Positions 3,426 to 38,180 of a DNA stretch of 64,000 nt are shown here, one piece after another; position 1 is the stretch's first letter, and every line of letters begins with the position of its first letter. The notes below the pieces were generated by a model, which was not told where the DNA came from, searched no databases, and was given only the letters and a program-made list of their open reading frames with translations. The position numbers and the translations under genes were made by a program. Origin of the DNA: Escherichia coli (lineage in GTDB: Bacteria; Pseudomonadota; Gammaproteobacteria; Enterobacterales; Enterobacteriaceae); the NCBI RefSeq assembly GCF_016026235.1, contig NZ_CP065613.1; one strand, given 5' to 3'.

Positions 3426-6838
<3,413 letters not shown>

Positions 6839-6895: not shown

Positions 6896-7543
6896 TCAGC
6901 GACCAATCACCACAACCTGACCACCATCCCCTTCGTCTGCCGTGCGGATCTCCTGAGAGACCACCCGCGACCCCACGCGCATTTCACCGTACAGAACGGG
7001 CAGAACATTGCCCTGGGCAACCATGTTATCCAGTGAGGAGAAATAGGTGTTCTGTTTGCCGTTATCTGTACTTGCTGCCGTGGGCGTCCTGGCTTTCGGT
7101 GCCAGCATCTGCGCCACTCCGCCCAGGATCATACTGGCCCCTGCCGCATACATGCCCGATACAGCCGCGGCACCCAGCCAGCCCACAGGGTTCCACCATG
7201 CCACCGCAATCAGCGCCACCCCCAGCACCACCTGAAACACACTGCCACTTTTAGCTCCCGCCAGACGCGGCACGATGTGGATCACGGCACCATTTGCCAG
7301 CGGCTCATTAAGACGGGCAGACAATTCGGTTTCACCTGCATCACGCCCGGCAATGCGTACCTGGTACCAGCCGTCGCTCAGTTTCTGACGAAACGCCGGG
7401 ATCTGCATGGCCAGCGCCCGGATGGCTTCGGACCCCGTTTTCACTCGAAGGTCGATGCGGCGGCCAAATCGTTGTAAATCCCCGTAAAGGCAGATGCGTG
7501 CCATGCCCGGTGACGCCAGAGGGAGTGTGTGCGTCGCTGCCAT
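6896..7543 (-). CDS. I: Tail assembly protein I (lambda gpI-like); true start probably an internal Met
   Basis: Position between K and J; C-terminal hydrophobic segment; the annotated start overlaps K by about 100 bp. Confidence 0.75.
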   Translation of the reverse strand: MAATHTLPLASPGMARICLYGDLQRFGRRIDLRVKTGSEAIRALAMQIPAFRQKLSDGWYQVRIAGRDAGETELSARLNEPLANGAVIHIVPRLAGAKSGSVFQVVLGVALIAVAWWNPVGWLGAAAVSGMYAAGASMILGGVAQMLAPKARTPTAASTDNGKQNTYFSSLDNMVAQGNVLPVLYGEMRVGSRVVSQEIRTADEGDGGQVVVIGR

Positions 7544-8888: not shown

Positions 8889-9217
8889 CAGTTCACCACC
8901 TGTTCAAAATCGGCCGTTACAGTCACCCATAACGCCCCCACGCTTGCCGACCATTTACGACAAACCACCCTGATCGGTTTCCAGTCATAAGGTGGCGTCC
9001 ACTGAAATGCGCGGACGCCACCGTGCCGTTCCAGAAAGGCTTTTAAAGATGGGTGTTCACATTTACGAACACGTATCGTCACGCTGTAAATCGACAACTG
9101 GTTATTCAGTCCCGCCGCACGACGCTGTTCATAACCATCGCCCAGCTTCACTGTCACCACTTTCGGCTCTGATACCACATTCATATCCGGGCGCACTTTC
9201 CAGTGAAACGTCTCCAT
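8888..9217 (-). CDS. M: Minor tail protein M
   Basis: 109 aa, same length and position as lambda gpM. Confidence 0.85.
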   Translation of the reverse strand: METFHWKVRPDMNVVSEPKVVTVKLGDGYEQRRAAGLNNQLSIYSVTIRVRKCEHPSLKAFLERHGGVRAFQWTPPYDWKPIRVVCRKWSASVGALWVTVTADFEQVVN

Positions 9218-12200: not shown

Positions 12201-12312
12201 GGTTTTTGATACGGGGAATTTCATTTTTAAACTCTGCCGCATCAATCCCCAAATCAATGACCAGGTTGGCTATCTGGTCCATAACGCACACCTCCGGAAA
12301 TACCTTCCCCAA
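9217..12312 (-). CDS. H: Tail tape measure protein H (start possibly at 12282)
   Basis: About 1030 aa, coiled-coil-rich, Gly-rich C-terminal part ending NNDGTNGQIGPAALKVVYDLGKKAA... similar to lambda gpH. Confidence 0.9.
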   Translation of the reverse strand: MGKVFPEVCVMDQIANLVIDLGIDAAEFKNEIPRIKNLLNGAASDAERSSARMQRFMERQTQAARQTTQAASSAATAASVHAQTVEKNAQAHERMAREVEKTRQRMEALSQKMREEQAQAMALAEAQDKAAAAFYRQIDSVKQASAGLQELQRIQQQIRQARNSGGIGQQDYLALISEVTAKTRVLTQAEEEATRQKVAFIRQLKEQATRQNLSSSELLRARAAQLGVSSAAEVYIRKMEQAGKATHSLGLKSAAARQEIGVLIGELARGNLGALRGSGITLANRAGWTGALMSPKGMMLGGVIGGIAAAVYGLGKAWYDGQKEGEEFNRQLSLTGHYAGVTAGQLWTLSRAISGNGITQHAAAGALAQVVGSGAFRGNDIGMVARAAAQMERSVGQSVSDTINQFKRLKDDPVNAAKALDNELHFLTATQLEQIRVLGDQGRSSDAARIAMSALAEETGRRTADIDNNLNALGSTLKYLSDLWSRFWDAAMNIGREDSLDEQITALQEKVSRAKRLPWTASSSQVEYDQQRLNDLQEKKRQKDLQDAKEQAERNYQEQQKRRNAENAALNRMNETEAARHQREIARINAMQYADQAVRDAAIQRENERYEKALASGKKKTRETRNDEATRLLLQYSQQQAQVEGQIAAARQSAGIATERMTEAHKQLLALQQRISDLDGKKLTADEKSVLARKNELIQALTLLDVKQQELQKQTALNDLKKKTIQLTSQLAEEERAQRQQHDLDIATVGMGDQQRQRYQVQLSLRQKYQQQLEQLRRDSEQKGTYNTDDYRKAEQALTESLNRQLNENRRYWQQLEVVQGNWKNGVLRAFQDFTVDADNTAGTAEQVFSSAFSNMGNGLATFVTTGKLNFKSFTSSVLSDMAKILAQATMMKSIKGIGSVLGFDLSSLSLNANGGIYQSADLSRYSGTVVNRPTFFAFAKGAGVMGEAGPEAILPLRRGADGKLGVVADIGGSGMAMFAPQYNIEINNDGTNGQIGPAALKVVYDLGKKAAADFMQQQARDGGRLSGAYR

Positions 12313-12978
12313 GATGCATCAGTTCTTCGTCCGTTCGCTCCGGTATCCCGTTCTCTTCCGGTAAAAGGCTGAAATCAGCCACCGCAGCATCACTGCTGCC
12401 GGACACCATTCTCACGATCAATGCCTTCAGCGAGGCAAACTGCGCATCCATCCACACATCACTGAAGCTCTGCATCCGGAAATAATCGCCCCACTCACCA
12501 AGCTCAGTGGCCGACATTTCCGACAGCATCCGCCGCCAGTCTGCCCGCCTGAACTCCCGGGCAAGCCGCATGACAAACTGCATTTCCCGCGTCAGGACTT
12601 TTCCGGCGTCAGCACCTCATGCTCCAAATCCCCGGCATTCTCAATGGCTCCCATACCGCTCAGCGACAGAACCATCTCCGCCCCCGCTCCCAGGGCATCA
12701 TACGACCATGTTGTAATAACGGATGCGCAAAGCGTCTCAACATCCTGAGACTGTTCCGCATTCCACAGTGAGCGGGAAACCAGCCAGGCATTGATATCCA
12801 TCCCCATCCGTAGAAAAGCAATCTGTCGTTCAGCCTCCGGCAGTTCTCCCTCTTCGGCATCAAACTTTGCCGTTCGCTGCTGAACAAACGCCAGATATTC
12901 AATTCTCTGCAGCCCGGACAGCTCACTGAGCACCACGGACTGCTTTTCATAATTAAACGTGCCCTGTTTCAGAAACAT
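12254..12978 (-). CDS. Tail assembly chaperone G-T, expected to be made by -1 frameshifting near the G stop
   Basis: The -1 frame is open across the G stop (…AGKVLTREMQFVMRLAREF…) and continues as ORF 12254..12583. Confidence 0.6.
12592..12978 (-). CDS. G: Tail assembly chaperone G
   Basis: Starts MFLKQGTFNYEK like lambda gpG (MFLK...); lies immediately upstream of H. Confidence 0.8.
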   Translation of the reverse strand: MFLKQGTFNYEKQSVVLSELSGLQRIEYLAFVQQRTAKFDAEEGELPEAERQIAFLRMGMDINAWLVSRSLWNAEQSQDVETLCASVITTWSYDALGAGAEMVLSLSGMGAIENAGDLEHEVLTPEKS

Positions 12979-13037
12979 CATGTTCTCCGGATGCAAAAAG
13001 CCCCGGATAACCGGGGCAAATGATGAGTATCGTCCTG

Positions 13038-13669
13038 TTAACCTGCGGCGCTGACAGCCACCGTAGCCACTGCCACAAAATCGCCGTCAGAAGTCATGCC
13101 CACAATGCTGACACTGCCCTGCTTCACGCCTTTCACCGTGGCAGTCTGTGGATCTGTCGAATGCACACTGATCGCTTTGTCACTGGCTCCGTCAGGTTTT
13201 ACTGTAAAGGTCAGCGTGGTGGTTGCTCCCGCTTTGACACTGGCAGATGCCGGTGCCATCGTCAGCCCGGTAACGCCCACGATTTCAGTGCCTTCCTCTG
13301 CCAGATACGGAAAACATCAACAGTACCGTTGGGATATTTGATACGAAAAGCGCAGACTTCACCGGAGTCGAACAACTGAACCAGTTTTTTCTGCCCGCTG
13401 TCCCCCGGACGCCAGGCCAGCGTCGCCGAAGTATCACCGACTGATTTCTGCCCCTGGGTTGTCGTTTTCCAGTCTGCATCTTCATCATCGAGATAAGTGT
13501 CATCTTCTGCATCAGCGGTCATTTCGCCAGGTTGCAGATCCTTCACCATCGCAAGACGCAGCCAGTCAGTGTCCGATAAAGGGTTCGCAAACGCATCGCC
13601 CTTGCCGGTATACATCCAGAACGTCGTTCCCGCACCTTTCGTTTTTGCCAGTGGATTTGGTGTGGTCAT
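13038..13669 (-). CDS. V: Major tail protein V, split into two overlapping frames (13262..13669 and 13038..13280)
   Basis: N-terminal part [20 protein letters not shown]...NGTVDVFR resembles lambda gpV; the Ig-like C-terminal domain ([24 protein letters not shown]...) is in another frame. Confidence 0.8.
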
Positions 13670-13679
13670 TACCACCTCC

Positions 13680-14093
13680 TTAATTCGTGTACGTGATCTG
13701 GTACGTGATTTCCGCCATCGCCCAGGTGGCCATCTCATTATCACGTTGATAGTTAAAACCGAGTGGGATCAGGGTGTCGATGAGTCCGGAAAGTGCTGGT
13801 ACATCATTCAGGGCCGGGAAAATGGTGCTCTCCATCCACATATCCAGCTCTGAATCCGGTGCCTGTGCCCGGATGAAGACAGCAATATGCAGAACAGCCT
13901 GCCAGTCATCTTCATCCGTCATTTTTCCGGTGTACTGAGCATCACTCAGCCACACCGCCACGGCAGGCAGTTCCTGCGCATCAACAAATGCCGGAAGCCC
14001 GTCAAAAAACGTGGCGCTGTCTCCACACTGTTCCCGAAGGCGTGCCAGTACGACCTGGCGGATTTGTGTATGTCGGTTCATCGGGTCAGCCAT
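13680..14093 (-). CDS. U: Tail tube terminator protein U
   Basis: ATFFDG...AVAV...PDSELD.WMES motifs similar to lambda gpU. Confidence 0.8.
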
Positions 14094-15345: not shown

Positions 15346-17057
15346 TTACGCCGTACATTTCACCAGACCGCGGTGATCAACTGGCGCGACACCGGCGTCA
15401 ATACGCACTTTCGTTGTCACGCCATCCACACTGAAGCCCTCCATCTGATCAATATATGGCGTATCCACACCGTTGAGATAAGCCACTTCAATCGTATCGG
15501 AGCCTTTTGACGCAGCCAAGTAGAAGGTGGTCTGGCTGTTATCATCAAGACGAGGCTCTGCAATAACGGTCGCAAAATCTTTCACCGGGTTAATAATACC
15601 GGCGTTAATGTCAGCCCCCTTGACACTTGAGGAGCGAATGACCTGGTTAGCAACAGACTCCATCGCCGTCGGTACCAGTACGAACGCAGGACGAATATTC
15701 AGATGACGCTCCCCCTCTTTCTGAACGCGCATCAACTGGCGGGCTTTATCCAGCGATGCCACGTCCATTGCAGCGCTCTCCAGTACGTTTGCATGTTTCG
15801 CTTTATCGAACAGACTTACATTATCTGTGGAGATTTTCGGGTTAGACGTCAGAATGGCATAAACCAGATCGGCAATAGTGGATTTCGCCGCACGGCCCAG
15901 TTTCATCGGGACATCGGTCAGCATATTCAGATCATCATTGATAATGGCCTGACGGGTGATACTGAACAGCTCGCCATAGGTCGCCAGTGCAATAGTGGCC
16001 TGTTTATCTCCGGTGGTGACGTATTTATATTCCGCCCCTTCACGCACCTGACGCAGAGCACTGAAGCCCCCCATACCCACACGATGGGCAATTTTAAAAT
16101 CAGACAACTGACCTTTCCGCGTCCACTGTTCATAGGTTTCAGGGGCATCTTCCCAGCCCTGCAGAATGGCTTTGTTCGCAACATCCAGCAGAATATTACC
16201 GAAGTCAGACGTACTGTGTGTGAACGCCGCACCGACCATCTGCATCGGGTTATAACCGGAAACCCCAATACCCCGTTCAGTCAGTGACATACGGGCATAT
16301 TCACGCAGGGTCATCCCGTTGTAGACATTATCACGTTCGGTTTTTTCAAATCCGGCACGCGCCATCAGCGCCTGGCGGATCCCGTCCCCCACAAAATTAC
16401 CGTTACCGGCATAAATATGAGCCGGGGTATTTTTATTGGATGGCGTGGACTCGCGCCCCATCTCGTTCAACAGCTTTTCACGGGCCTGCTCCAGCGAACA
16501 TTCAGGATCGGCAAGACACTGAGCCTGCAGCGTCTGATAACGCCCGCCAAACATGGCAAACAGATCATTAATACCGTTTACACGCGCTTTTTGCTCTGCC
16601 AGTACCTGCGCACGGATGCTGTTTTCATCCACCACGGGTGCTGCTGCCTGCACTGGCGTCCGGGAGGCTTCAGATTCATTATCCTGTACGCGTGGAGCAC
16701 TGTTGCGTGGCGGAGTAATCATGTTTCGAATGGATTCCGGCATCTTTTTAAATTCCTCTGTACGTTTTGACTGAATACATGCCATTGCCTTAACGGCTGG
16801 CGTTACCTGATCAGCAAATCCATGTGCCAGACATTCGGCACCGGACATCCAGGTCTCATCCGCCAGCATGGCAGCAATTTCATCGGTGGTTTTCCCGGTT
16901 TTCTGTGCATAAGCGGGTAACAGAACCGCCTCAACTTTATCGAGCAGGTCGGCATAGGTGCGCATGTCCTCCGCATCACCGCCCGTAAAGCCAAATGGTT
17001 TATGAATCATCATGAAGGTGTTTTCCGGCATAATGACCGGGTTTCCTACCATCGCAA
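15346..17057 (-). pseudogene. Prohead protease / major capsid protein fusion (HK97-fold), 5' end cut by IS600-like element
   Basis: N-terminal part looks like the C-terminal half of a ClpP-like prohead protease, followed by a capsid-like domain; the frame runs directly into the IS end at 17058. Confidence 0.75.
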
Positions 17058-17100
17058 TGAGGTGTACTGGCAATAGCGGACACTACCATTTGTTCTTTTT

Positions 17101-17919
17101 TTAAGCAGCCATCTGATGATATTTTTCCCTGAAGGCTGCCGGGGAGATATTCCCCAGACGAGAGTGACGACGCTGACGATTGTAGAAAATCTCAATGTAT
17201 TCCCGTATTACTGAGATGGCTTCATCCCGGTTATTAAAACGATAGTGGCTCAGGCTCTCATTTTTCAGCGTTCCCCAGAAGCTTTCCATCGGAGCGTTGT
17301 CGTAACAGTTACCTTTACGCGACATTGATGTTTTCAGACCAAACTGCTCCTGTATGACCCGGTAATCGTATGCGCAGTACTGTGAACCTCGATCAGAGTG
17401 GTGGATTAGCCCGGCAGGTGGGCGCTGGCTCCTGAGCGCCATAAACAGGGCTTTACCTGTCAGCTCTTTTGTCATGCGCTCTCCCATGGCGTAGCCGACA
17501 ATTTCGCACGTATAAACATCTTTGATGCCAGCGAGGTACAACCATCCCTCCTGTGTGGCAACATACGTCAGGTCCGCCACCCAGACCTGATTTGGTGCTG
17601 TAGGAGCGAACGTCTGGTTCAGCAGATTTGGCGCAACTGGCAGATTGTGGTTCGGGTTCGTAGTCGCTCTGAACTTGCGTTTCTGCTTACAGCGTAGCCT
17701 TAGCTCCTTACGAAGACGTGCCAGTCGGTCACGACCAACGATGATGCCATTCTCTGCCAGCTCCGTCTGGAGCCGCCGGGTTCCATATGTTTCGCGAGTG
17801 CGGATATGTGCCACCTTAATCTCCAGTTTTAGCCGCTCATCACTTTGTTTTCTGTCTGAGGGTTCATGCTGTACCCAGTTGTAATAACCGCTCCTGGATA
17901 CACCAAATACCTGACACAT
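17101..17919 (-). CDS. IS3-family transposase OrfB (DDE integrase-like catalytic domain)
   Basis: 272 aa with HSDRGSQY and later E; the -1 frame joins orfA to orfB through an A7 run (about 17995-18005). Confidence 0.9.
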   Translation of the reverse strand: MCQVFGVSRSGYYNWVQHEPSDRKQSDERLKLEIKVAHIRTRETYGTRRLQTELAENGIIVGRDRLARLRKELRLRCKQKRKFRATTNPNHNLPVAPNLLNQTFAPTAPNQVWVADLTYVATQEGWLYLAGIKDVYTCEIVGYAMGERMTKELTGKALFMALRSQRPPAGLIHHSDRGSQYCAYDYRVIQEQFGLKTSMSRKGNCYDNAPMESFWGTLKNESLSHYRFNNRDEAISVIREYIEIFYNRQRRHSRLGNISPAAFREKYHQMAA

Positions 17920-17954
17920 CGCTTCAATGGGAAATTGTTGTCGCCATTGTTCGA

Positions 17955-18257
17955 TTAACGCGTATTTTTCAGCGACTCCTGTGCAAAATACGCTGTTGCT
18001 TTTTTTAATATATCTCGCTCAAGGCGAGCTTCATTTAACGCCTTACGCAGTTGCAGAATTTCAGATTCCAGTTCAGCCACCGTGCGGGAGCCAGGAGTAC
18101 CGAGCCCTTTTCTGGCGGCGGTAACCCATTGTCCTAAAGTGCCTTCAGGAAGGGATAATCGGGAAGCGCCTTCACTGATCGAAAGTTGATTTTCAAGAAC
18201 CGTTCTGACAGCTTCGGCTTTGAACTCTTTAGAGTAACGTTGGGTTTTTCTGCTCAT
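17955..18257 (-). CDS. IS3-family transposase OrfA (helix-turn-helix)
   Basis: 100 aa, MSRKTQRYSKEFKAEAVRTV..., typical IS3-family OrfA. Confidence 0.9.
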   Translation of the reverse strand: MSRKTQRYSKEFKAEAVRTVLENQLSISEGASRLSLPEGTLGQWVTAARKGLGTPGSRTVAELESEILQLRKALNEARLERDILKKATAYFAQESLKNTR

Positions 18258-18321
18258 TATTAGCTCCTTCTGATGCCATTCTATTTCAGGAAGGAGTGTC
18301 CGTTAAACTCAGGCTACCTCA

Positions 18322-18405
18322 GTTTTCCCTGACTCTTACGCCTTTATAAACAAACCAGATACGTAATTTCCCTCCATGGCTTTCCACGCCTGTCGGATAT
18401 TTCAT
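18322..18405 (-). pseudogene. Phage integrase N-terminal remnant (about 27 codons), truncated by IS600-like element
   Basis: Minus-strand translation MKYPTGVESHGGKLRIWFVYKGVRVREN is the characteristic N-terminus of lambdoid tyrosine integrases, directly downstream of xis. Confidence 0.6.
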
Positions 18406-18439
18406 TTCAATTTCTCTCATTAGTTAGTGTGGCTTTTAG

Positions 18440-18691
18440 TCAAGTAAGATGACGTCTTGGTCTTGCTGATGCCTGGCGCTCAATCCAGCGATCAATTTCT
18501 TCCAGGTTGTAAAAGCATGGACTGTTATCCCATGGCATACCGTCATGAGCGACATGCTTATATTCCCTTCCTTCCATAAACGATTTTTCCCGGGCCTTTT
18601 TTAACGTACCTTTTTTTATTCCTTTCAGCGCAATTAACTGCTCTTCGGATACCCATTTGCCGGGAGAGACAATCATGATTACTTCGCTCAT
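18440..18691 (-). CDS. Putative excisionase-like protein
   Basis: 83 aa, immediately upstream of the int remnant on the same strand; assignment mainly by position. Confidence 0.5.
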   Translation of the reverse strand: MSEVIMIVSPGKWVSEEQLIALKGIKKGTLKKAREKSFMEGREYKHVAHDGMPWDNSPCFYNLEEIDRWIERQASARPRRHLT

Positions 18692-18904: not shown

Positions 18905-20198
18905 CTGAGGAATCCCCAGAAAACAAGACAGGCATAGTGAGATGTGATCTAATTGATTGTGCTAACAATTTCAAGGAGATCACCACTATGCCTGCACGTT
19001 CATTATGCCAAAATTTCCTTAACAACATACTGGCCCCTTTGCATCTTTACCGTCAAAAATCACTGATTGACGCAACTAATGCTGTAATAAATGGCGCTTC
19101 CCTCACACTTACCAGTATCGGGCGTCATTTAACCGGTACGGCATCAGTTAAAAACAAAATAAAGCGGGTGGATCGACTGTTGGGGAATCGACATTTGCAA
19201 AATGAGGTTTCCACCATTTTTCAGCGAATTACCCAAAAGATTACGCGGGGAATGTCTCGTGTTGTGATACTCATTGACTGGAGTGCTTATCATGCCTCTC
19301 GTTTTCAGCTTTTGCGGGCAAGCCTGGCATGTGACGGGCGTTCTTTACCGTTGATGAGTTGTGTCGTTCCATCATCACAGACAGCGAATGCAGATGTACA
19401 TGAGCGTTTTCTGGAATCGCTTGCTGAGTGCTTTTCCCCCGGGACTGATGTCATTGTTATTACAGATGCCGGTTTTCAGGGGCGATGGTTCCAACAGCTC
19501 CGCTCCCGTGGCTGGACCTATATTTGCCGGGTACTGGGCAATCATTATTACAATGTTGGTAATGGCTGGGAAAAGGTGTCGGACTCAGGCACAAAAGCAT
19601 CAACGACAGCAATTTATTTAGGTGAAGGCCTGCTGGGTCGAGATAAAAATGCACAACATGAAGGGCATTTTTATCTTTATAAAAGTAAGCCTAAAGGTCG
19701 TAGATTTAAACGCTCGAAGGAAAGAGCAACCAGACCATCGGTGACGGCTAAAGCTCGTACTGCCGGGAAATCACCATGGTTTATTTTCACAAACAGTACT
19801 GAGTTCTCGCCAAAACAGGTAATGAAATTATACAGCCGTAGAATGCAAATTGAGCAAAATTTCAGGGATGAAAAAAATCCTCGCTGGGGATTTGGACTAC
19901 GGTTTGGTGCCAGTCATTCATCCGGGCGGGTCACGGTATTGAGTCTGATCGCAACATTAGCCAGTATCATTATGTGGTTAAGCGGTTTCAGCCTGGAAAA
20001 CAAAGGGATACATCATAAATATCAGGCAAATACAGTGAAGCACAGGCGAGTCATCTCGTTATTAAAACTGGCGGAGAATGTGATTCGACATTCTCCACTC
20101 ATACTAAACACACTGTCACTTGACGCAGGGCTGAAAGTTCTACAGCAACGGTATACCAATATGATAATGGTTTACTAAATTTTCTGGGGATCCCTCAG
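18905..20198 (+). mobile_element. IS4-family insertion sequence, IS10-like, copy 1 (1294 bp)
   Basis: Terminal inverted repeats CTGAGGAATCCCCAGAAAA (left) and CTGAGGGATCCCCAGAAAA (right, reverse complement), resembling IS10 ends; single transposase ORF; no 9-bp direct repeat in the flanks. Confidence 0.85.
18988..20178 (+). CDS. IS4-family (IS10-like) DDE transposase
   Basis: ATG at 18988 preceded by AAGGAG; motifs KRVDRLLGNRHL, ILIDWS, VITDAGF and YSRRMQIEQNFRD align with the IS10 transposase DDE residues. Confidence 0.85.
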   Translation: MPARSLCQNFLNNILAPLHLYRQKSLIDATNAVINGASLTLTSIGRHLTGTASVKNKIKRVDRLLGNRHLQNEVSTIFQRITQKITRGMSRVVILIDWSAYHASRFQLLRASLACDGRSLPLMSCVVPSSQTANADVHERFLESLAECFSPGTDVIVITDAGFQGRWFQQLRSRGWTYICRVLGNHYYNVGNGWEKVSDSGTKASTTAIYLGEGLLGRDKNAQHEGHFYLYKSKPKGRRFKRSKERATRPSVTAKARTAGKSPWFIFTNSTEFSPKQVMKLYSRRMQIEQNFRDEKNPRWGFGLRFGASHSSGRVTVLSLIATLASIIMWLSGFSLENKGIHHKYQANTVKHRRVISLLKLAENVIRHSPLILNTLSLDAGLKVLQQRYTNMIMVY

Positions 20199-20824
20199 CA
20201 GTCAGCCCCGCTCTCTTTCGCTTTTTCCAGTCGTTCATCAATGCGATCGGCAACAATCACATTTTTAACGTTATAGACGCCTTTTAATACCTGAACGATC
20301 GTCAGGCCGATTGGACCGGCACCGTAAACCAGAACGGTATCATTTTCAGTCGGTTGACCATGGCCGGTTACGTTAGCCGCAATGGTAAAAGGTTCGATCA
20401 TCACCGCATATTGATCGGCCACTGCTTCAGGAATTTTCCACGCATTTTTTGCCGGAACCACGGCATATTCACTGAAACCACCGTCAGCGTGCACACCTAA
20501 TACAGCCAGTGTCGTACAAACGTTCGGTTTACCTATAGAGCACGGATAGCAATGCCCACAGCTGACCACCGGATCGACAGCAACACGTTCACCGACTCTG
20601 GCGCTTTCCACACCTTCACCCACCGCATCAATGACGCCAAAGAATTCATGTCCAATGACGCGCGGATATTTCGCAAAAGGATTATGCCCACGATAAATAT
20701 GGCTATCTGAACCACAAATTCCGGCAAGTTTCACTTTTACTCGTACTTCACCCGCTGACGGGGTGGGTATTTCACGTTCGACAATCGCCAGTTGATTCGG
20801 TTTTTCAATTAATATGCTTTTCAT
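20199..20824 (-). pseudogene. rspB: Starvation-sensing zinc-type dehydrogenase RspB, 3'-truncated by IS10-like element
   Basis: N-terminus MKSILIEKPNQLAIVEREIPTPSAGEVRVKV... matches RspB; reading frame ends in a TGA supplied by the IS terminus after about 208 of roughly 339 residues. Confidence 0.85.
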
Positions 20825-20835
20825 TATCTTACTCC

Positions 20836-22050
20836 TTACCAGTTCCACAGCGTGCCATCTTCCAGACGTGCGACTGGTAGATAAGCAGGTTCATAGGGAT
20901 ATTTCGCCGCCAGCTTTTCATCGAATTCGATGCCAAGACCCGGTTTGTCTCCCGGATGCATATAGCCGTTATCGAAAGTCCAGTTGTGCGGGAAGACTTC
21001 GAGCATTTGTTCGGAATAACCCATGTATTCCTGGACACCGAAATTGGGGACCCACAGATCAAAGTGCAGCGCTGCAGCCATGCAGACTGGTGACAAATCG
21101 GAAGGACCGTGTGAGCCAGTACGTACCTGATACAGCGAAGCAAAATCGGCAATCCGGCGCATACCGGTAATTCCGCCTGCATGGGTCAGCGTGGTGCGGA
21201 TATAATCGATGAGTTGCTCTTCAATCAGTTGTTTGCAGTCCCAGATGCTGTTGAAGACTTCACCCACTGCGATGGGTGTGACGGTATGTTGGCGAATGAG
21301 ACGGAAGCATTCCTGGTTTTCCGCAGGCGTCGGGTCTTCCATCCAGAACATGCGATAATCTTCAATGCTTTTACCAAAGCGCGCCGCTTCAATAGGCGTT
21401 AAGCGATGGTGCATGTCATGCAGCAAATGTTCATTAAAACCAAACTTGTTACGTACCGCGTCAAACAATTTCGGCATGAAATCGAGGTATTTCTCCGTCG
21501 ACCACAGCTGCTCTTCCGGCCACTGTCCTTTGGTTGCGGGTTCATAAGCCAGACCTTTACCTTTCGACATGCCGTAGGTGGTTTTCATACCAGGGATTCC
21601 GCACTGCACGCGGATGGCTTTGAATCCCAGCTCCTGATGACGGGCATAATCATCCAGAGCTTCATCAATACTGTGACCGGTGGTATGGCAATAAACCATC
21701 ACCCCTTCACGAGACGCGCCGCCGAGTAACTGGTAAAGCGGCATGTTGGCAGCTTTGGCTTTAATATCCCACAGCGCCATATCAACCGCTGAAATGGCCG
21801 ACATCGTAACCGGACCGCGACGCCAGTAAGCACCTTTATAGAAAAACTGCCAGATATCTTCGATACGGTGCGCATCGCGACCAATAAGCTGCGGACAAAG
21901 GTGATCCTGCAAATAAGAGGCCACGGAAAGCTCACGTCCATTGAGGGTGGCATCCCCAAGGCCCGTAATACCGTCCTCAGTGGTGATTTTTAATGTGACG
22001 AAATTACGCCCCGGACAGGTAACAAAAACTTCAGCCTTTACGATCTTCAT
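20836..22050 (-). CDS. rspA: Starvation-sensing protein RspA (mannonate dehydratase / enolase superfamily)
   Basis: [40 protein letters not shown]...; 404 aa from the internal Met. Confidence 0.9.
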
Positions 22051-22255
22051 GTTCGATTCCTTGCATCGCTTGTCGTGATGCATGAAATCTACGCAACTGA
22101 ACTACTACCATACAAGTATGAAGATCGAAAAAAGCCGGAGTGATCACAAAAAAAGGCGTATATTTGCGCTGTGAATGGTTGACAAAAGATGAAATAGAAT
22201 ACCTTTTGTCAGCTGACGCTTCCTCGTATCTTATTGATAAAATGGATTTATGTTC

Positions 22256-22716: not shown

Positions 22717-23058
22717 ATGAAAATCACTCTCAGCAAACGAATCGGCCTGCTCGCTTTTCTGCTGCCTTGCGCACTGGCATTGAGCACAACTGTTCATGCC
22801 GAAACTAACAAACTGGTGATTGAGTCTGGCGACAGTGCACAAAGCCGCCAGCACGCCGCTATGGAAAAAGAGCAATGGAATGACACGCGCAATCTGCGCC
22901 AGAAAGTGAATAAACGCACTGAAAAAGAGTGGGATAAAGCCGACGCCGCTTTTGATAACCGCGATAAATGTGAGCAAAGCGCCAACATCAATGCCTACTG
23001 GGAGCCAAATACTTTGCGCTGCCTGGACCGTCGAACTGGCCGCGTTATTACCCCCTAA
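22717..23058 (+). CDS. ynfB: UPF0482 secreted protein YnfB
   Basis: 113 aa with signal peptide. Confidence 0.85.
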
Positions 23059-23092
23059 CCTGTTATTGATTTAAGGAATGTAAGGACACGTT

Positions 23093-23653
23093 ATGCCAAG
23101 CGCCCACAGTGTTAAGCTACGCCCGCTGGAGCGTGAAGATTTACGCTATGTACATCAACTCGACAATAACGCCAGTGTGATGCGTTACTGGTTTGAGGAA
23201 CCCTACGAAGCCTTTGTTGAACTCTCTGATCTGTATGATAAGCATATTCACGATCAGAGCGAACGACGCTTTGTGGTGGAATGTGACGGCGAAAAAGCCG
23301 GTCTGGTGGAGTTGGTGGAAATTAACCATGTACATCGCCGCGCAGAATTTCAGATAATTATCTCCCCGGAGTATCAGGGGAAAGGTCTGGCAACCCGTGC
23401 CGCCAAATTAGCAATGGACTATGGCTTCACCGTTCTCAATCTCTATAAGCTGTATCTGATCGTTGATAAAGAGAATGAAAAAGCGATTCACATTTACCGC
23501 AAGCTTGGCTTTACGGTTGAAGGTGAATTGATGCATGAGTTCTTTATTAATGGTCAATATCGTAATGCCATTCGCATGTGTATATTCCAGCATCAGTATC
23601 TGGCAGAGCACAAAACACCGGGTCAGACTCTCCTGAAGCCGACCGCACAATAG
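23093..23653 (+). CDS. speG: Spermidine N1-acetyltransferase (GNAT)
   Basis: 186 aa; GNAT fold motifs; matches SpeG. Confidence 0.9.
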
Positions 23654-23655
23654 CA

Positions 23656-24366
23656 TTAATAATAATCGATCGTATTTTTGATGGTGTAAACCCGTTCGAC
23701 GGCGGGTTTTACTCCTTCATCAACAATGATCAGCTGACAGTCCACCGGATTGGCGTGACTGTCATATTCACAGCTCTGTTTTACATTACCAACTCGTTGA
23801 TTATTCAGTAAAGTAACCGCTGTGTAATCTAATTTTTTGATCGGGTCCGTTGATGGCGTGGCGCTGACAGATAATGTTTTGTCGTTACTTTTCGTGGTTT
23901 TACCCAGTGGATAACCCTGATCATCATAGCGATATTCCATCTGCATTTGTTTGCTGCTGGCTTTAATCACGAAGCCATTATCATCGGTTTCCCAACTCAC
24001 CCCGGCAGAAGGTAATTCTGCTAGCTGGCATTTTCCCTGTAAACGTACTCTCTTCTCCAGCGTCTCGGCATCACGGTAATAATTGGCGTCCAGTACCAGA
24101 GCGACCACGGTATTATTTTCCAGATCCAGTAATTCGAGTGAATCAAAACAGCCTTCTTCCGACAAAGTCCCCGAAACACGTTTCGTCACTTCACCTTGCT
24201 CATCCATTAATGTCTGAGTGAAATCTTTTACCGGACCACGCAGCGGATCAAAATCGAATTCATTAGAGAAACTGGCCATCTCAGGAGTAAATGAAAGTGT
24301 TACCTCTGTGCGGTCACATCCTGTGAGTAATATCGCGAGTAAGCATGGCAGTAATTTGTATTTCAC
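23656..24366 (-). CDS. ynfC: Lipoprotein YnfC (UPF0257); probable GTG start
   Basis: Lipobox LLTGC; 236 aa from the GTG. Confidence 0.8.
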   Translation of the reverse strand: MKYKLLPCLLAILLTGCDRTEVTLSFTPEMASFSNEFDFDPLRGPVKDFTQTLMDEQGEVTKRVSGTLSEEGCFDSLELLDLENNTVVALVLDANYYRDAETLEKRVRLQGKCQLAELPSAGVSWETDDNGFVIKASSKQMQMEYRYDDQGYPLGKTTKSNDKTLSVSATPSTDPIKKLDYTAVTLLNNQRVGNVKQSCEYDSHANPVDCQLIIVDEGVKPAVERVYTIKNTIDYY

Positions 24367-24470
24367 ATCAGTCACCAGAGAGTAGAGATGATTCTCAATC
24401 ATAGTAGCAAATACAGTACTTTACACGTTAAATGCTATGCTTAAAGAAGTTATCTTCGCGTAAGGAGCTT

Positions 24471-24779
24471 ATGATGAAACTCTCAACCTGCTGTGCCGCG
24501 CTTCTGCTCGCCCTCGCCTCACCCGCGGTACTCGCCGCGCCGGGATCCTGTGAGCGCATACAAAGCGATATATCACAGCGCATTATCAATAATGGCGTAC
24601 CCGAAAGCAGCTTCACGTTAAGTATTGTACCCAATGACCAGGTTGATCAGCCTGATTCCCAGGTCGTCGGGCATTGCGCTAATGATACGCATAAAATTCT
24701 CTACACCCGCACCACCAGCGGTAACGTCTCTGCTCCCGCGCAGTCTACCCAGGATGGCGCGCCTGCCGAACCGCAGTAA
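24471..24779 (+). CDS. ynfD: DUF1161 secreted protein YnfD
   Basis: About 101 aa with signal peptide ending AVLAAPGSC. Confidence 0.8.
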   Translation: MMKLSTCCAALLLALASPAVLAAPGSCERIQSDISQRIINNGVPESSFTLSIVPNDQVDQPDSQVVGHCANDTHKILYTRTTSGNVSAPAQSTQDGAPAEPQ

Positions 24780-24796
24780 CACATTATCGACTGAAC

Positions 24797-24817
24797 GCCG
24801 GATACGACGCATCCGGC
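24797..24817. repeat. REP-like palindromic unit downstream of ynfD
   Basis: Perfect inverted repeat GCCGGAT-ACGACGC-ATCCGGC in the intergenic region. Confidence 0.4.
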
Positions 24818-24976
24818 GATTTGAACATACAACATAACCCACCTTATTACTCATACCCTTCTATTGATATGGATTAATAATTCTTAACCCAAAATGGGTA
24901 GACTCCCTCTATTGTTAGCGCGCTAAATATTCAATATATAAACTTTTATATAACGATAAAGAACAGGGAGTGAGTT

Positions 24977-27403
24977 ATGTCCAAAAATGAACAAATGGTG
25001 GGCATCAGCCGCAGAACACTCGTTAAATCCACCGCGATAGGTTCTCTGGCGCTGGCTGCAGGCGGTTTTTCTTTACCGTTCACCCTGCGCAGTGCAGCGG
25101 CAGCGGTACAACAGGCCAGCGAGAAAGTGGTCTGGGGTGCCTGTTCCGTCAACTGTGGTAGCCGCTGTGCACTTCGTCTGCATGTTAAAGATAATGAAGT
25201 GATCTGGGTGGAAACTGACAACACCGGCAACGACGAGTATGGCAATCATCAAGTACGCGCCTGTTTGCGCGGTCGCTCCATCCGCCGGCGTATTAATCAT
25301 CCCGATCGCTTGAATTACCCAATGAAACGCGTGGGTAAACGCGGTGAACGCAAATTCGAACGGATTAGCTGGGATGAAGCCCTAGATACTATCGCCAGTA
25401 GCCTGAAAAAAACCGTCGAACAATATGGCAATGAGGCTGTATATATTCAGTACTCTTCGGGGATTGTTGGCGGCAATATGACCCGCTCTTCGCCATCAGC
25501 CTCGGCGGTCAAACGCCTGATGAACTGCTACGGCGGTTCACTCAACCAGTATGGCTCCTACAGCACTGCGCAAATTTCCTGTGCCATGCCCTACACCTAC
25601 GGCAGTAATGATGGCAACAGCACCACGGATATTGAAAACAGCAAGCTGGTCGTGATGTTTGGTAACAACCCGGCAGAAACCCGCATGAGCGGCGGTGGCA
25701 TCACTTATCTTCTTGAAAAAGCGCGCGAAAAATCGAACGCAAAAATGATTGTTATCGATCCGCGATATACCGATACGGCTGCCGGTCGTGAAGACGAATG
25801 GCTTCCTATTCGCCCGGGCACCGATGCCGCGCTGGTTGCGGGTATTGCCTGGGTATTGATTAACGAAAATCTCGTTGATCAACCTTTTCTCGATAAATAC
25901 TGCGTCGGCTATGACGAAAAAACCTTACCCGCAGATGCACCCCAAAATGGTCACTATAAAGCCTATATTCTTGGTGAAGGAGACGATAAAACAGCGAAAA
26001 CGCCGCAGTGGGCTTCGCAAATTACCGGTATCCCAGTGGACCGTATCATCAAACTGGCGCGTGAAATTGGCACAGCAAAACCCGCTTATATCTGCCAGGG
26101 CTGGGGGCCGCAACGCCAGGCAAACGGCGAACTGACCGCACGCGCTATTGCTATGTTGCCAATTCTGACGGGCAATGTCGGCATCAGCGGCGGAAATAGT
26201 GGCGCGCGTGAATCGACCTATACCATTACCATAGAACGCCTGCCGGTGCTGGATAATCCGGTCAAAACGTCAATTTCCTGCTTCAGCTGGACAGATGCTA
26301 TCGATCATGGTCCGCAAATGACGGCAATCCGCGACGGCGTCCGCGGCAAAGATAAACTGGATGTGCCCATTAAGTTCATCTGGAACTACGCGGGAAATAC
26401 CCTGGTTAATCAGCATTCTGACATCAACAAAACGCATGAAATTCTGCAAGACGAATCGAAATGCGAAATGATTGTGGTCATCGAAAACTTTATGACCTCA
26501 TCGGCAAAATATGCCGACATTCTGCTGCCAGACCTGATGACCGTTGAGCAGGAAGATATTATTCCTAACGACTACGCCGGTAACATGGGATATCTCATTT
26601 TCCTCCAGCCAGTCACCAGCGAAAAATTCGAACGTAAACCGATTTACTGGATCCTGAGTGAAGTCGCGAAACGTCTTGGACCTGACGTCTATCAAAAGTT
26701 CACTGAAGGTCGCACGCAGGAACAATGGTTACAACATCTGTACGCCAAAATGCTTGCCAAAGATCCGGCGTTACCGTCTTACGACGAACTGAAAAAAATG
26801 GGTATCTATAAGCGTAAAGATCCCAATGGTCATTTTGTCGCCTACAAAGCATTTCGTGACGACCCCGAGGCAAATCCACTTAAAACACCTTCCGGTAAGA
26901 TTGAAATTTATTCCAGCAAGCTGGCGGAAATTGCCCGTACCTGGGAACTGGAAAAAGATGAAGTGATAAGCCCACTGCCAGTTTATGCCTCTACCTTTGA
27001 AGGCTGGGACTCACCTGAACGTAGAACCTTCCCACTGCAACTGTTTGGTTTCCATTACAAATCCCGTACTCACTCGACCTACGGCAACATTGATGTCCTG
27101 AAAGCAGCCTGCCGTCAGGAGGTGTGGATCAACCCTATAGATGCGCAGAAACGTGGGATTGCCAACGGCGATATGGTGCGGGTGTTTAACCATCGTGGCG
27201 AAGTTCGGCTACCAGCCAAAGTGACACCACGTATTCTCCCTGGAGTTAGCGCTATGGGCCAGGGAGCCTGGCACGAGGCCAATATGTCTGGCGATAAAAT
27301 CGACCATGGAGGCTGTGTGAATACGCTAACCACTCTGCGCCCTACACCACTGGCGAAGGGAAACCCGCAGCATACGAATCTGGTCGAGATCGAAAAAATA
27401 TAA
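24977..27403 (+). CDS. ynfE: Molybdopterin (DMSO reductase family) oxidoreductase catalytic subunit YnfE, Tat-exported
   Basis: 808 aa; twin-arginine signal SRRTLVKS; DmsA-like. Confidence 0.9.
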   Translation: MSKNEQMVGISRRTLVKSTAIGSLALAAGGFSLPFTLRSAAAAVQQASEKVVWGACSVNCGSRCALRLHVKDNEVIWVETDNTGNDEYGNHQVRACLRGRSIRRRINHPDRLNYPMKRVGKRGERKFERISWDEALDTIASSLKKTVEQYGNEAVYIQYSSGIVGGNMTRSSPSASAVKRLMNCYGGSLNQYGSYSTAQISCAMPYTYGSNDGNSTTDIENSKLVVMFGNNPAETRMSGGGITYLLEKAREKSNAKMIVIDPRYTDTAAGREDEWLPIRPGTDAALVAGIAWVLINENLVDQPFLDKYCVGYDEKTLPADAPQNGHYKAYILGEGDDKTAKTPQWASQITGIPVDRIIKLAREIGTAKPAYICQGWGPQRQANGELTARAIAMLPILTGNVGISGGNSGARESTYTITIERLPVLDNPVKTSISCFSWTDAIDHGPQMTAIRDGVRGKDKLDVPIKFIWNYAGNTLVNQHSDINKTHEILQDESKCEMIVVIENFMTSSAKYADILLPDLMTVEQEDIIPNDYAGNMGYLIFLQPVTSEKFERKPIYWILSEVAKRLGPDVYQKFTEGRTQEQWLQHLYAKMLAKDPALPSYDELKKMGIYKRKDPNGHFVAYKAFRDDPEANPLKTPSGKIEIYSSKLAEIARTWELEKDEVISPLPVYASTFEGWDSPERRTFPLQLFGFHYKSRTHSTYGNIDVLKAACRQEVWINPIDAQKRGIANGDMVRVFNHRGEVRLPAKVTPRILPGVSAMGQGAWHEANMSGDKIDHGGCVNTLTTLRPTPLAKGNPQHTNLVEIEKI

Positions 27404-27460
27404 CCCACTACAACCATAAATTCTGGCATGACATTTTGTTTGAAAAGCAATAAGTGAGTA

Positions 27461-29887
27461 ATGATGAAAATCCATACCACAGAGGCGCTCATGAAGGCTG
27501 AAATCAGCCGTAGAAGTCTGATGAAAACCTCCGCACTTGGCAGTCTTGCGCTGGCAAGCAGTGCTTTCACTCTGCCATTTTCCCAAATGGTCCGGGCGGC
27601 ACAGGCTCCGGTAGAAGAGAAAGCGGTCTGGAGTTCCTGCACCGTTAACTGCGGGAGCCGCTGTCTGTTACGTTTGCATGTGAAAGATGACACCGTGTAC
27701 TGGGTGGAGTCTGATACGACAGGTGACGACGTCTACGGTAATCATCAGGTTCGTGCGTGTTTACGCGGGCGCTCTATCCGCCGACGGATGAATCATCCTG
27801 ATAGGTTGAAATATCCCATGAAGCGCGTCGGCAAGCGCGGTGAAGGTAAATTTGAACGGATAAGTTGGGACGAAGCCCTGGATACCATCAGTGATAATCT
27901 TCGGCGGATCCTGAAAGATTACGGCAATGAGGCTGTACATGTCCTGTACGGAACAGGCGTAGATGGCGGAAACATCACCAACTCAAACGTCCCGTACCGT
28001 CTGATGAACTCTTGCGGTGGTTTTCTCAGTCGCTATGGCAGCTACAGTACCGCACAGATCAGTGCCGCAATGAGTTATATGTTCGGTGCCAATGATGGCA
28101 ACAGCCCGGATGATATCGCCAATACGAAACTGGTCGTTATGTTCGGAAATAACCCGGCAGAAACGCGGATGAGCGGTGGTGGTGTCACTTACTACGTCGA
28201 GCAAGCCCGCGAACGTTCAAACGCACGCATGATCGTCATCGATCCACGTTATAACGACACAGCTGCCGGGCGTGAAGATGAATGGCTGCCCATTCGCCCT
28301 GGCACCGATGGCGCACTGGCCTGTGCGATTGCCTGGGTACTGATTACTGAAAACATGGTCGATCAGCCATTTCTCGACAAATATTGTGTTGGTTACGATG
28401 AAAAAACGCTGCCCGCCAACGCACCACGTAACGCGCATTATAAAGCCTATATTCTGGGCGAAGGGCCTGACGGCATAGCTAAAACGCCGGAATGGGCAGC
28501 AAAAATCACCAGCATCCCGGCAGAAAAAATTATCCAGTTGGCACGAGAGATCGGTTCAGCAATACCTGCTTATATTTGTCAGGGTTGGGGGCCACAACGA
28601 CACTCCAACGGCGAGCAAACATCCCGCGCTATTGCCATGCTTTCCGTTCTCACCGGTAACGTCGGCATAAACGGCGGCAACTCAGGCGTACGCGAAGGTA
28701 GCTGGGATCTGGGGGTAGAATGGTTCCCGATGCTCGAGAATCCTGTTAAAACGCAGATTTCCGTCTTTACATGGACAGATGCCATCGACCATGGTACGGA
28801 AATGACCGCGACCCGTGATGGTGTTCGTGGAAAAGAAAAACTGGATGTCCCCATCAAGTTTTTATGGTGCTACGCCAGTAACACATTGATCAATCAACAT
28901 GGCGACATCAATCACACCCATGAGGTGCTTCAGGATGACAGCAAGTGCGAGATGATTGTCGGCATTGACCACTTCATGACGGCCTCGGCTAAGTATTGCG
29001 ATATCCTGTTGCCCGACCTGATGCCAACAGAGCAAGAAGACCTTATCTCTCATGAATCTGCAGGGAATATGGGCTATGTGATCCTCGCCCAACCCGCAAC
29101 CTCAGCAAAATTTGAACGCAAACCCATCTACTGGATGCTGAGTGAAGTCGCCAAACGCTTAGGACCGGACGTTTATCAAACCTTTACTGAAGGTCGCAGT
29201 CAGCATGAATGGATCAAATATCTCCATGCGAAAACGAAGGAACGTAACCCTGAGATGCCCGACTACGAGGAGATGAAAACGACCGGGATCTTTAAGAAAA
29301 AATGCCCAGAAGAACACTACGTCGCTTTCCGCGCATTCCGTGAAGATCCACAGGCAAACCCGTTGAAAACACCTTCGGGGAAAATCGAAATTTATTCTGA
29401 ACGACTGGCGAAGATTGCAGATACCTGGGAATTGAAAAAAGATGAAATTATTCATCCCCTTCCTGCGTATACCCCAGGTTTTGATGGCTGGGACGATCCC
29501 CTGCGGAAAACCTATCCACTGCAGTTAACGGGCTTCCACTACAAAGCGCGTACCCACTCCAGCTACGGCAATATTGATGTGTTACAGCAGGCCTGCCCAC
29601 AAGAGGTGTGGATCAACCCCATTGATGCTCAGGCACGCGGTATCCGTCATGGCGATACCGTGCGGGTATTTAACAATAATGGAGAAATGCTGATTGCCGC
29701 AAAAGTGACTCCGCGTATTCTGCCTGGCGTTACCGCCATCGGGCAAGGTGCGTGGCTTAAAGCGGATATGTTTGGTGACCGGGTCGATCACGGCGGCAGT
29801 ATTAATATTCTGACCTCTCACCGCCCTTCACCGCTGGCAAAGGGAAACCCGTCGCACAGCAATCTTGTCCAGATCGAAAAGGTTTAA
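27461..29887 (+). CDS. ynfF: Molybdopterin oxidoreductase catalytic subunit YnfF (DmsA paralog), Tat-exported
   Basis: 808 aa; Tat motif SRRSLMKT; tandem paralog of ynfE. Confidence 0.9.
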   Translation: MMKIHTTEALMKAEISRRSLMKTSALGSLALASSAFTLPFSQMVRAAQAPVEEKAVWSSCTVNCGSRCLLRLHVKDDTVYWVESDTTGDDVYGNHQVRACLRGRSIRRRMNHPDRLKYPMKRVGKRGEGKFERISWDEALDTISDNLRRILKDYGNEAVHVLYGTGVDGGNITNSNVPYRLMNSCGGFLSRYGSYSTAQISAAMSYMFGANDGNSPDDIANTKLVVMFGNNPAETRMSGGGVTYYVEQARERSNARMIVIDPRYNDTAAGREDEWLPIRPGTDGALACAIAWVLITENMVDQPFLDKYCVGYDEKTLPANAPRNAHYKAYILGEGPDGIAKTPEWAAKITSIPAEKIIQLAREIGSAIPAYICQGWGPQRHSNGEQTSRAIAMLSVLTGNVGINGGNSGVREGSWDLGVEWFPMLENPVKTQISVFTWTDAIDHGTEMTATRDGVRGKEKLDVPIKFLWCYASNTLINQHGDINHTHEVLQDDSKCEMIVGIDHFMTASAKYCDILLPDLMPTEQEDLISHESAGNMGYVILAQPATSAKFERKPIYWMLSEVAKRLGPDVYQTFTEGRSQHEWIKYLHAKTKERNPEMPDYEEMKTTGIFKKKCPEEHYVAFRAFREDPQANPLKTPSGKIEIYSERLAKIADTWELKKDEIIHPLPAYTPGFDGWDDPLRKTYPLQLTGFHYKARTHSSYGNIDVLQQACPQEVWINPIDAQARGIRHGDTVRVFNNNGEMLIAAKVTPRILPGVTAIGQGAWLKADMFGDRVDHGGSINILTSHRPSPLAKGNPSHSNLVQIEKV

Positions 29888-29897
29888 GGAGTAGCCC

Positions 29898-30515
29898 ATG
29901 ACCACACAATATGGATTTTTTATCGATTCCAGCCGCTGTACTGGCTGTAAAACCTGCGAACTGGCGTGCAAAGATTTTAAAGATCTTGGCCCGGAAGTCA
30001 GTTTCCGCCGTATTTATGAATATGCTGGCGGCGACTGGCAGGAAGATAATGGCGTCTGGCACCAGAACGTGTTCGCTTATTATCTCTCCATCTCCTGTAA
30101 CCATTGCGATGACCCCGCATGTACAAAAGTCTGCCCCAGCGGCGCAATGCATAAGCGTGAAGATGGCTTTGTGGTGGTTGATGAAGATGTTTGTATCGGC
30201 TGCCGCTACTGCCACATGGCTTGTCCGTACGGCGCGCCACAGTACAATGCTGAAAAAGGGCACATGACGAAGTGCGATGGTTGTTATTCGCGCGTCGCCG
30301 AGGGGAAACAACCCATATGCGTCGAATCCTGCCCGCTGCGTGCACTTGAGTTCGGTCCAATTGAAGAGCTGCGCCAGAAGCACGGCACTCTGGCTGCCGT
30401 CGCGCCACTGCCGCGCGCGCATTTCACAAAACCCAATATCGTTATCAAACCTAACGCCAACAGCCGCCCGACCGGCGATACCACTGGTTATCTGGCTAAT
30501 CCGGAGGAAGTGTAA
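29898..30515 (+). CDS. ynfG: 4Fe-4S ferredoxin-type subunit YnfG (DmsB paralog)
   Basis: 205 aa with four Cys clusters (CxxCxxCxxxCP). Confidence 0.9.
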   Translation: MTTQYGFFIDSSRCTGCKTCELACKDFKDLGPEVSFRRIYEYAGGDWQEDNGVWHQNVFAYYLSISCNHCDDPACTKVCPSGAMHKREDGFVVVDEDVCIGCRYCHMACPYGAPQYNAEKGHMTKCDGCYSRVAEGKQPICVESCPLRALEFGPIEELRQKHGTLAAVAPLPRAHFTKPNIVIKPNANSRPTGDTTGYLANPEEV

Positions 30516-30516
30516 A

Positions 30517-31371
30517 ATGGGAAATGGATGGCATGAATGGCCACTGGTTATCTTTACCGTATTGGGTCAATGCGTAGTAGGCGCGCTGATTGTTAGCGGA
30601 ATTGGCTGGTTCGCCGCCAAAAATGACGCAGACCGTCAGCACATTGTTCGTGGCATGTTTTTCCTCTGGCTGTTGATGGGCATCGGGTTTATTGCCTCTG
30701 TCATGCACCTGGGATCGCCACTGCGGGCGTTTAACTCGCTGAATCGAATCGGAGCTTCTGGTCTGAGTAACGAGATTGCTGCCGGTTCCATATTTTTTTC
30801 CGTTGGCGGACTATGGTGGCTGGTGGCGGTCATCGGTAAAATGCCGCAAGCGTTGGGGAAACTCTGGTTACTTGTCAGCATGGCGCTCGGCGTCATTTTC
30901 GTCTGGATGATGACCTGCGTGTATCAAATCGACACTGTGCCAACCTGGCATAACGGTTACACTACGCTGGCTTTCTTCCTGACGGTATTGTTGAGTGGTC
31001 CAATACTTGCTGCCGCAATTCTGCGGGCAGCCCGCGTTACATTTAATACCACACCATTTGCCATCATTAGCGTTCTGGCGCTGATCGCTTGTGCCGGGGT
31101 GATTGTGCTGCAAGGTTTGTCTCTGTCGTCTATTCACTCATCCGTGCAACAAGCCAGCGCACTGGTACCAGATTACGCCTCCTTACAGGTCTGGCGTGTG
31201 GTATTGTTATGCGCAGGTCTAGGATGCTGGCTTTGTCCGCTCATACGTCGCCGTGAACCTCACGTTGCCGGACTTATTCTGGGGCTAATCCTCATACTTG
31301 GCGGTGAGATGATCGGGCGTGTGCTCTTTTATGGCCTGCACATGACGGTAGGAATGGCTATTGCAGGTTAA
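30517..31371 (+). CDS. ynfH: Membrane anchor subunit YnfH (DmsC paralog)
   Basis: 284 aa, polytopic membrane protein; ATG one base after the ynfG stop. Confidence 0.85.
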   Translation: MGNGWHEWPLVIFTVLGQCVVGALIVSGIGWFAAKNDADRQHIVRGMFFLWLLMGIGFIASVMHLGSPLRAFNSLNRIGASGLSNEIAAGSIFFSVGGLWWLVAVIGKMPQALGKLWLLVSMALGVIFVWMMTCVYQIDTVPTWHNGYTTLAFFLTVLLSGPILAAAILRAARVTFNTTPFAIISVLALIACAGVIVLQGLSLSSIHSSVQQASALVPDYASLQVWRVVLLCAGLGCWLCPLIRRREPHVAGLILGLILILGGEMIGRVLFYGLHMTVGMAIAG

Positions 31372-31413
31372 CAAATTAGTGCGGGGCAACCCGCACATTT
31401 CGGGATGTTAGGA

Positions 31414-32028: not shown

Positions 32029-32222
32029 GATCACCGTAATATTGCCGGATGGTGACGATTACGCGCGATTCGGCAATAATACGTTACAGTGTCACGTTTT
32101 TTTATCTCTTAAAGCACGCACTGCTTTTGCGGCTGGCCTCTTTTGCCGCAAAATAGTCGCCCGTGTTTCATTGCCCATTTCTGCTCATGCATCATCTACA
32201 CATCTATCCGGATCTGCGCACT

Positions 32223-34127: not shown

Positions 34128-34251
34128 CACTAACTCCACCGTTATGCTTCACAAATATAAACCAGCAAGATAATTAATCTTGAAAGTCTAAGTTATGCTT
34201 TCCTGGCCCAAATTGAGATAGCGCAAATTTTGGTAGAACAGTTAAAAAATG

Positions 34252-35472: not shown

Positions 35473-35606
35473 CGCATACTCCCTATATTTTCGCGCTCCG
35501 AAATAATCTGTAGGCTATGGTGAAGCACTTCAATACGTGTCGTCAAATTTTTACTTAGGCATGTGATTAACAGCACATTTTTCGGGCTTTTTCGCTGAAA
35601 TTTCCC

Positions 35607-36500: not shown

Positions 36501-36606
36501 ATTTAAAACATCTTATTTGAGATTATTAATATATTAGACAGAACAATTCGATTTTCCTAACCTATGTATAAGCCTGATCCACAGGCATATTTAGCAAGGA
36601 TTTCAA

Positions 36607-38166: not shown

Positions 38167-38180
38167 TACATATCGTTACA
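38167..38180 (+). promoter_or_regulatory. RstA box-like site (TACATATCGTTACA) in the asr promoter region
   Basis: Matches the published RstA box pattern TACA-T-N-T-N-GTTACA, about 105 bp upstream of the asr start. Confidence 0.5.

Follow-up and report, generated by a model that had tools for sequence, protein, structure and literature searches.

A lambda-type tail tube gene split into two frames by repeat-flanked deletions in an Escherichia coli prophage remnant

In phage SPP1 a programmed +1 frameshift extends the tail tube protein gp17.1 to gp17.1*, which carries an appended Ig-type FN3 domain, and tail proteins of the Listeria phages A118, A500 and PSA likewise give a second product by +1 frameshifting (PMC5009743, PMC9022992). 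In these systems the tube and Ig-type (Ig-like or FN3) domains lie in different, overlapping frames, the layout is native and conserved, and the upstream frame by itself encodes a complete tube protein. As Ig-type extensions made by frameshifting are known in other siphophages, recoding was an alternative that needed testing for the lambda-type tail tube gene V described here, which lies in two overlapping frames in an E. coli prophage. A prior reading of this DNA from its letters alone (the sequence-only reading) had stated that no programmed frameshift is known in V. This is correct for lambda V, whereas other siphophage tail tube proteins do gain C-terminal extensions in this way.

The closest relatives of the gene are lambda gpV and the orthologous proteins of phages phi458, cdtI and mEp460, with which it shares the U–V–G/T position and the Phage_TTP_12 and Big_2 domains. 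Phages phi458, mEp460 and cdtI each carry V as one 744-nt CDS, with a U-type terminator gene on one side and the G/T chaperone genes on the other, and its annotation there is major tail protein or subunit. Over its full length the intact orthologue can be aligned with lambda V: phi458 V gives a gapless alignment of 245 residues to the solved structures (6P3E, E=3.5e-87), of which 2K4Q, the N-terminal domain, covers residues 1-153 and 2L04, the Ig-like domain, residues 159-245. The copy in the window (the whole 64,000-nt stretch of E. coli DNA that was analysed) differs from these proteins in the loss of 85 nt, which removes residues 122-149 and shifts the frame, and of a further 27 nt, which removes nine residues.

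The window copy is read from the minus strand as two ORFs, called here frame A and frame B (Table 1). Frame A starts at an ATG at 13669 with a GGAGG upstream, and its TGA stop occupies 13264-13262; the first 121 of its codons are authentic tube-domain codons, and the last 14 are out-of-frame read-through past a deletion junction. Frame B is in the -1 frame relative to frame A, opens at 13316 following a TGA at 13319-13317, and ends at the authentic V stop (13040-13038) with a C-terminus that translates as AVSAAG. In Pfam, frame A matches PF16461 Phage_TTP_12, the profile described as "lambda phage tail tube protein" (E=1.5e-52), and frame B matches PF02368 Big_2 (E=2.1e-07); by tblastn frame A corresponds to residues 1-132 of phi458 V and frame B to residues 149-247. 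Hence translation and Pfam bear out the split of V into two overlapping frames that the sequence-only reading had described, and the overlap, put there at about 50 nt, is 55 nt. The range given for the split (13038-13744) is too long at its upper end: 13744 is where the ORF mechanically begins, at a GTG within the 3' end of gene U, and the true start is 13669.

Table 1. Features of the V region and of the surrounding prophage remnant (window coordinates; A1 is the four-way nucleotide alignment described in the text).
Feature	Position	Strand	Basis and remarks
V-like tail tube gene, 5' fragment (frame A)	13262..13669	minus	135 codons + TGA; ORF/translation, Pfam, tblastn
V-like gene, 3' fragment (frame B, linker + Ig-like Big_2)	13038..13316	minus	-1 frame; translation, Pfam, tblastn
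85-nt frameshifting deletion junction	13307..13311	minus	single TCCGT kept; A1 columns 391-475
27-nt in-frame deletion junction, Ig-like domain	13133..13142	minus	single GCCACGGTGA kept; A1 columns 644-670
U-type tail terminator gene, intact, upstream of V	13680..14093	minus	100% over 133 aa to phi458 Orf33; annotated terminator/minor tail U in relatives
G and T tail assembly chaperone genes	12254..12996	minus	Pfam Phage_TAC_2, Phage_tail_T; 100% identity to phi458 G, T (tblastn)
Tail-tip gene J, two frames	3429..6835	minus	aa 1-966 and 963-1165 in different frames (tblastn)
IS600 (IS3 family) at prophage breakpoint	~17053..18321	minus	rve/HTH_21 domains; RefSeq "IS3-like element IS600 family transposase"

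The sequence-only reading had also taken the split for an inactivating indel rather than recoding, had found the linker shorter than that of lambda V, and had proposed that a nucleotide alignment would locate the indel. We aligned the window with phi458, mEp460 and cdtI (alignment A1) and found the sequences to be nearly identical apart from two gaps, one of 85 nt and one of 27 nt, both in the window copy. Outside the deletions the window V has ~99% nucleotide identity to phi458 V, and with U upstream and G/T downstream it shows both descent from V and synteny with it. The pentanucleotide TCCGT occurs twice, 85 nt apart, in the intact relatives (GTTT TCCGT GGCTGG ... GGGGCG TCCGT ATCTGG), and a single copy is left in the window. 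The 85-nt deletion takes out tube-domain residues 122-149 and, since 85 is 28×3 + 1, changes the frame by -1. The linker is indeed shorter, 28 codons plus 1 nt being absent relative to the intact relatives and lambda V, and inactivation by an indel is supported by a deletion that is not a multiple of 3 nt; the lesion, however, is neither a small indel nor a read error but a large deletion flanked by repeats.

The second deletion, in the Ig-like domain, was absent from the sequence-only reading and was revealed by the alignment. In phi458 and cdtI the 10-bp sequence GCCACGGTGA occurs twice, 27 nt apart, and the window again keeps one copy. Nine codons are gone from the Ig-like domain, with TATVTLNGLVATVKGV becoming TATVKGV, and as 27 is 9×3 the reading frame is kept across this junction. 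RecA-independent deletion between short homologies (replication slippage) classically leaves one copy of the repeat behind at the junction. Direct repeats flank the lost segments in phi458, one copy is left at each window junction, and both V deletions probably arose by replication slippage between these short direct repeats.

Megablast of window positions 13000-13760 against phage genomes returned 17 records that cover the whole query, in two pieces that extend over ~873 nt compared with 761 nt in the window, a difference equal to the sum of the two deletions (85 + 27 = 112 = 873 − 761). At least 80% of the query is held by 1,826 of 5,426 complete E. coli genomes, and the best-listed matches all span 873 nt and thus have an intact V. 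With junction-spanning queries neither deletion junction was found in the 5,426 complete E. coli genomes, the best-listed matches being split over 151 nt in every case for the 85-nt junction and over 98 nt for the 27-nt junction. The V allele is, as judged from these comparisons, private to one lineage.

That the split is an artefact of sequencing or assembly, and that the true genome has an intact V, is very improbable. The window source is apparently a single long contig, and the nearby lesion in gene J is a homopolymer-length change, a typical long-read error; the V lesions are unlike homopolymer errors in being deletions of 85 nt and 27 nt bounded by direct repeats. Moreover, three other independently deposited drafts have the identical sequence, with both deletions and all SNPs: along 651 nt, LSGL01000147, LSGK01000101 and LSGJ01000284, each from a different NCBI draft assembly, match the window at 100% identity, and GCA_001907395.1, GCA_001907535.1 and GCA_001907545.1 are among the assemblies that carry the allele. 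At least six public contigs (six to seven overall) have an ORF for precisely this 135-aa product, with the same 80-aa Big_2 ORF after it each time, and on one 4.56-Mb contig both V products (STL95684.1 and STL95680.1) are named "Major tail protein V [Escherichia coli]". The identical allele in independent assemblies rules out sequencing error as the cause of the split, and the outcome that the sequence-only reading had said would overturn it, a single continuous ORF once a sequencing error was corrected, does not apply.

The V region lies in a truncated prophage. Comparison of window positions 1-24500 with the whole of phi458 showed collinearity only from phi458 22734 to ~38645, which corresponds to the window from 17060 down to 1381. 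At the upper end of this segment stands an IS600 copy composed of orfA followed by a 272-aa orfB with the rve and HTH_21 domains, and at this element the protease-capsid gene has lost its first 81 codons, only residues 82-652 being present by tblastn. The comparison over window positions 1-24500 found in the remnant no counterpart to the phi458 genes for portal, terminase, lysis, replication or immunity. None of the complete E. coli genomes of the collection shares the IS600/capsid junction, and a search among them for an IS600-truncated remnant with an intact V, which would have ordered the events, found none. Just past IS600, at ~18320-18680 on the minus strand, reading by eye picked out the short N-terminal stub of an integrase (MKYPTGVESHGGKLRIWFVYKGVRVREN) and a small ORF resembling an excisionase, and these presumably represent the other end of the original prophage. 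An end of the prophage in this position would argue for an IS-associated internal deletion rather than a simple insertion.

Farther along, a DDE_Tnp_1 transposase ORF of 413 aa occupies 18937-20178 on the plus strand. It is abutted by a Zn-dependent alcohol dehydrogenase-like ORF of which only the N-terminal 217 aa are present (18937-20848 for the pair), and an enolase-superfamily (MR_MLE) gene at 20836-22083 adjoins the truncated dehydrogenase ORF. The truncated dehydrogenase looks like another IS-disrupted chromosomal gene, which would fit an IS-rich decaying genome.

Within the remnant the tail genes Z, U, G, T, H, M, L, K, I and Lom are uninterrupted by tblastn against phi458. Identity to phi458 is 94-100% for Z, U, G, T, L, K and Lom and 96% for H. 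Tail genes that are intact and this close to those of phi458 show that decay is recent, and the tail module may have been functional until shortly before. Two genes on the minus strand, M-like (8891-9217) and I-like (6899-7444), have only 54% and 72% protein identity to phi458, in contrast to the 94-100% of their neighbours, and this divergence points to probable mosaic exchange among the tail genes. Nor does the distal tail-fibre region (ORF 114-2735) resemble that of phi458.

Gene J is also split into two frames. Nucleotide alignment places its frame change at one C lost from a CCCCC run within 4020-4039 relative to phi458, and the best complete-genome matches to the junction span 92 nt for a 91-nt query, so that the extra base is present in those genomes. 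The 948-aa truncated J product had no exact match among recorded proteins. The J frameshift could be a real second pseudogenising lesion or could be a homopolymer read error. The remnant, which became immobile recently and is decaying in an E. coli background rich in IS elements, therefore has the features of a defective prophage: essential modules are missing, only phi458 22734-38645 being represented together with an integrase stub, and the lesions are multiple, with the protease-capsid gene cut at aa 82, two deletions in V and an apparent 1-nt deletion in J. It resembles the cryptic lambdoid remnants of E. coli and Shigella in the loss of whole modules at an IS boundary (here IS600) and in the extra frameshifts in the remaining structural genes, and we see no substantive difference from them; this remnant and its V allele are not among the 5,426 complete E. 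coli genomes and occur in a few draft or long-read assemblies only.

The consequences for the protein were considered next to the lambda V structures. As 2K4Q spans residues 1-153, the deleted residues 122-149 fall inside the solved tube domain. Positions 1-135 of the PF16461 profile are matched by phi458 V, but only positions 1-107 of 135 by the window copy. The complete N-terminal tube domain of a lambda gpV-type protein is thus lacking, and the tube and Ig-like domains, which the relatives encode in one 744-nt CDS, are separated in the window by the stop at 13264-13262. Both domains have suffered deletions, so a product with its frame restored would still miss part of the tube domain and part of the Ig-like domain. 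With both deletions, the window copy cannot encode a full V protein.

The deletions could in principle have left a functional variant, in which a short tube protein and a separate Ig-like protein (from GTG 13280) are retained by the host, for example in a tail-like particle. Although most tail genes are intact and gene callers predict products of 135 aa and 80 aa, the deletion cuts the conserved tube fold, and J, which is needed for the tail tip, is frameshifted as well. Further, the allele occurs in one lineage and has no sequence divergence that would show maintenance by selection. We consider such a variant highly unlikely.

A programmed -1 ribosomal frameshift that adds the Ig-like domain to a fraction of the tube subunits, in the manner of SPP1 and the Listeria phages, deserves even less credence. 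Such frameshifting does occur in other siphophages (PMC5009743, PMC9022992), and the Ig-like ORF does lie in the -1 frame with a 55-nt overlap, but V is one continuous ORF in the 17 related phages and in the best-matching complete E. coli genomes, and the two-frame layout occurs only where the 85 nt are lost and coincides exactly with that deletion. The conserved two-frame layout of a frameshift-extended protein of the SPP1 gp17.1* type is thus not seen among the relatives. Neither is its complete, assembly-competent upstream tube protein, since the frame A product ends within the tube domain: this product misses the last 28 positions of the tube profile, and a fusion protein would also miss residues 122-149. 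With neither head nor lysis genes, the prophage could not give rise to a virion. The 0-frame GTT TTC at 13315-13310 would permit a weak single-tRNA Phe slip (UUC to UUU), whereas no canonical X_XXY_YYZ heptamer is present in the 0 frame across 13262-13325, a weak criterion given that the genuine G/T site nearby is also non-canonical. The window V thus differs from the SPP1 and Listeria systems in having a lineage-private deletion, no canonical shift site and an incomplete tube domain. On the comparative alignment and the junction searches we reject a programmed -1 frameshift in V, and the argument rests on conservation and not on the motif scan.

The adjacent G and T genes provide an internal control. 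Their overlap retains the -1 layout, with CCG GAA AAG TCC TGA at 12606-12592 (minus strand), 100% identical to phi458. The site is an A-AAG lysine-slip context and not a strict X_XXY_YYZ. The lambda G/T slippery heptamer is G GGA AAG, from which the phi458-type site found here differs. The G/T overlap is conserved in all of the relatives, whereas the V overlap is found in none, and this comparison separates a recoding site from a lesion.

A further reading, to which we assign a probability close to nil, is that the broken V is still expressed, by low-level -1 slippage at GUU UUC or by initiation at GTG 13280, to give a free or fused Big_2 module that is used by the host; if this were true, the Big_2 module (perhaps in surface or carbohydrate binding) would be a case of early domestication of a phage Ig-like domain.

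We conclude that the locus is almost certainly a dead lambda-type V gene in a defective prophage remnant, an ordinary pseudogene broken by repeat-flanked deletions. The ancestral V would have been a single 744-nt ORF encoding the tube domain and, C-terminal to it, the Big_2 Ig-like domain. This ORF has since lost 85 nt between TCCGT copies and 27 nt between GCCACGGTGA copies, and the first of these losses took away residues 122-149 and moved the Ig-like domain into the -1 frame. As a result of the 85-nt deletion, translation from the V start would give a 135-aa product composed of an incomplete tube fold plus 14 nonsense residues, and the Ig-like part would be left without a dedicated translation start. 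The head, lysis, replication and immunity modules have been lost to an IS600-associated deletion, either before or after the V deletions, and J has a 1-nt frameshift in this sequence. Given the truncated prophage and the J frameshift, V would not be under selection and would be decaying neutrally; we infer loss of V function and neutral decay from this combination.

For annotation, one pseudogene should replace the two ORFs (135 aa and 80 aa), each of which stands in the records as "Major tail protein V". The two V deletion junctions provide lineage-specific markers, absent from the 5,426 complete E. coli genomes. In kind the finding is not new, and both pieces already go under the name V in public records. 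The biological weight of the finding is small: it is textbook prophage decay, in which IS-mediated truncation is joined by slippage deletions and a homopolymer frameshift.
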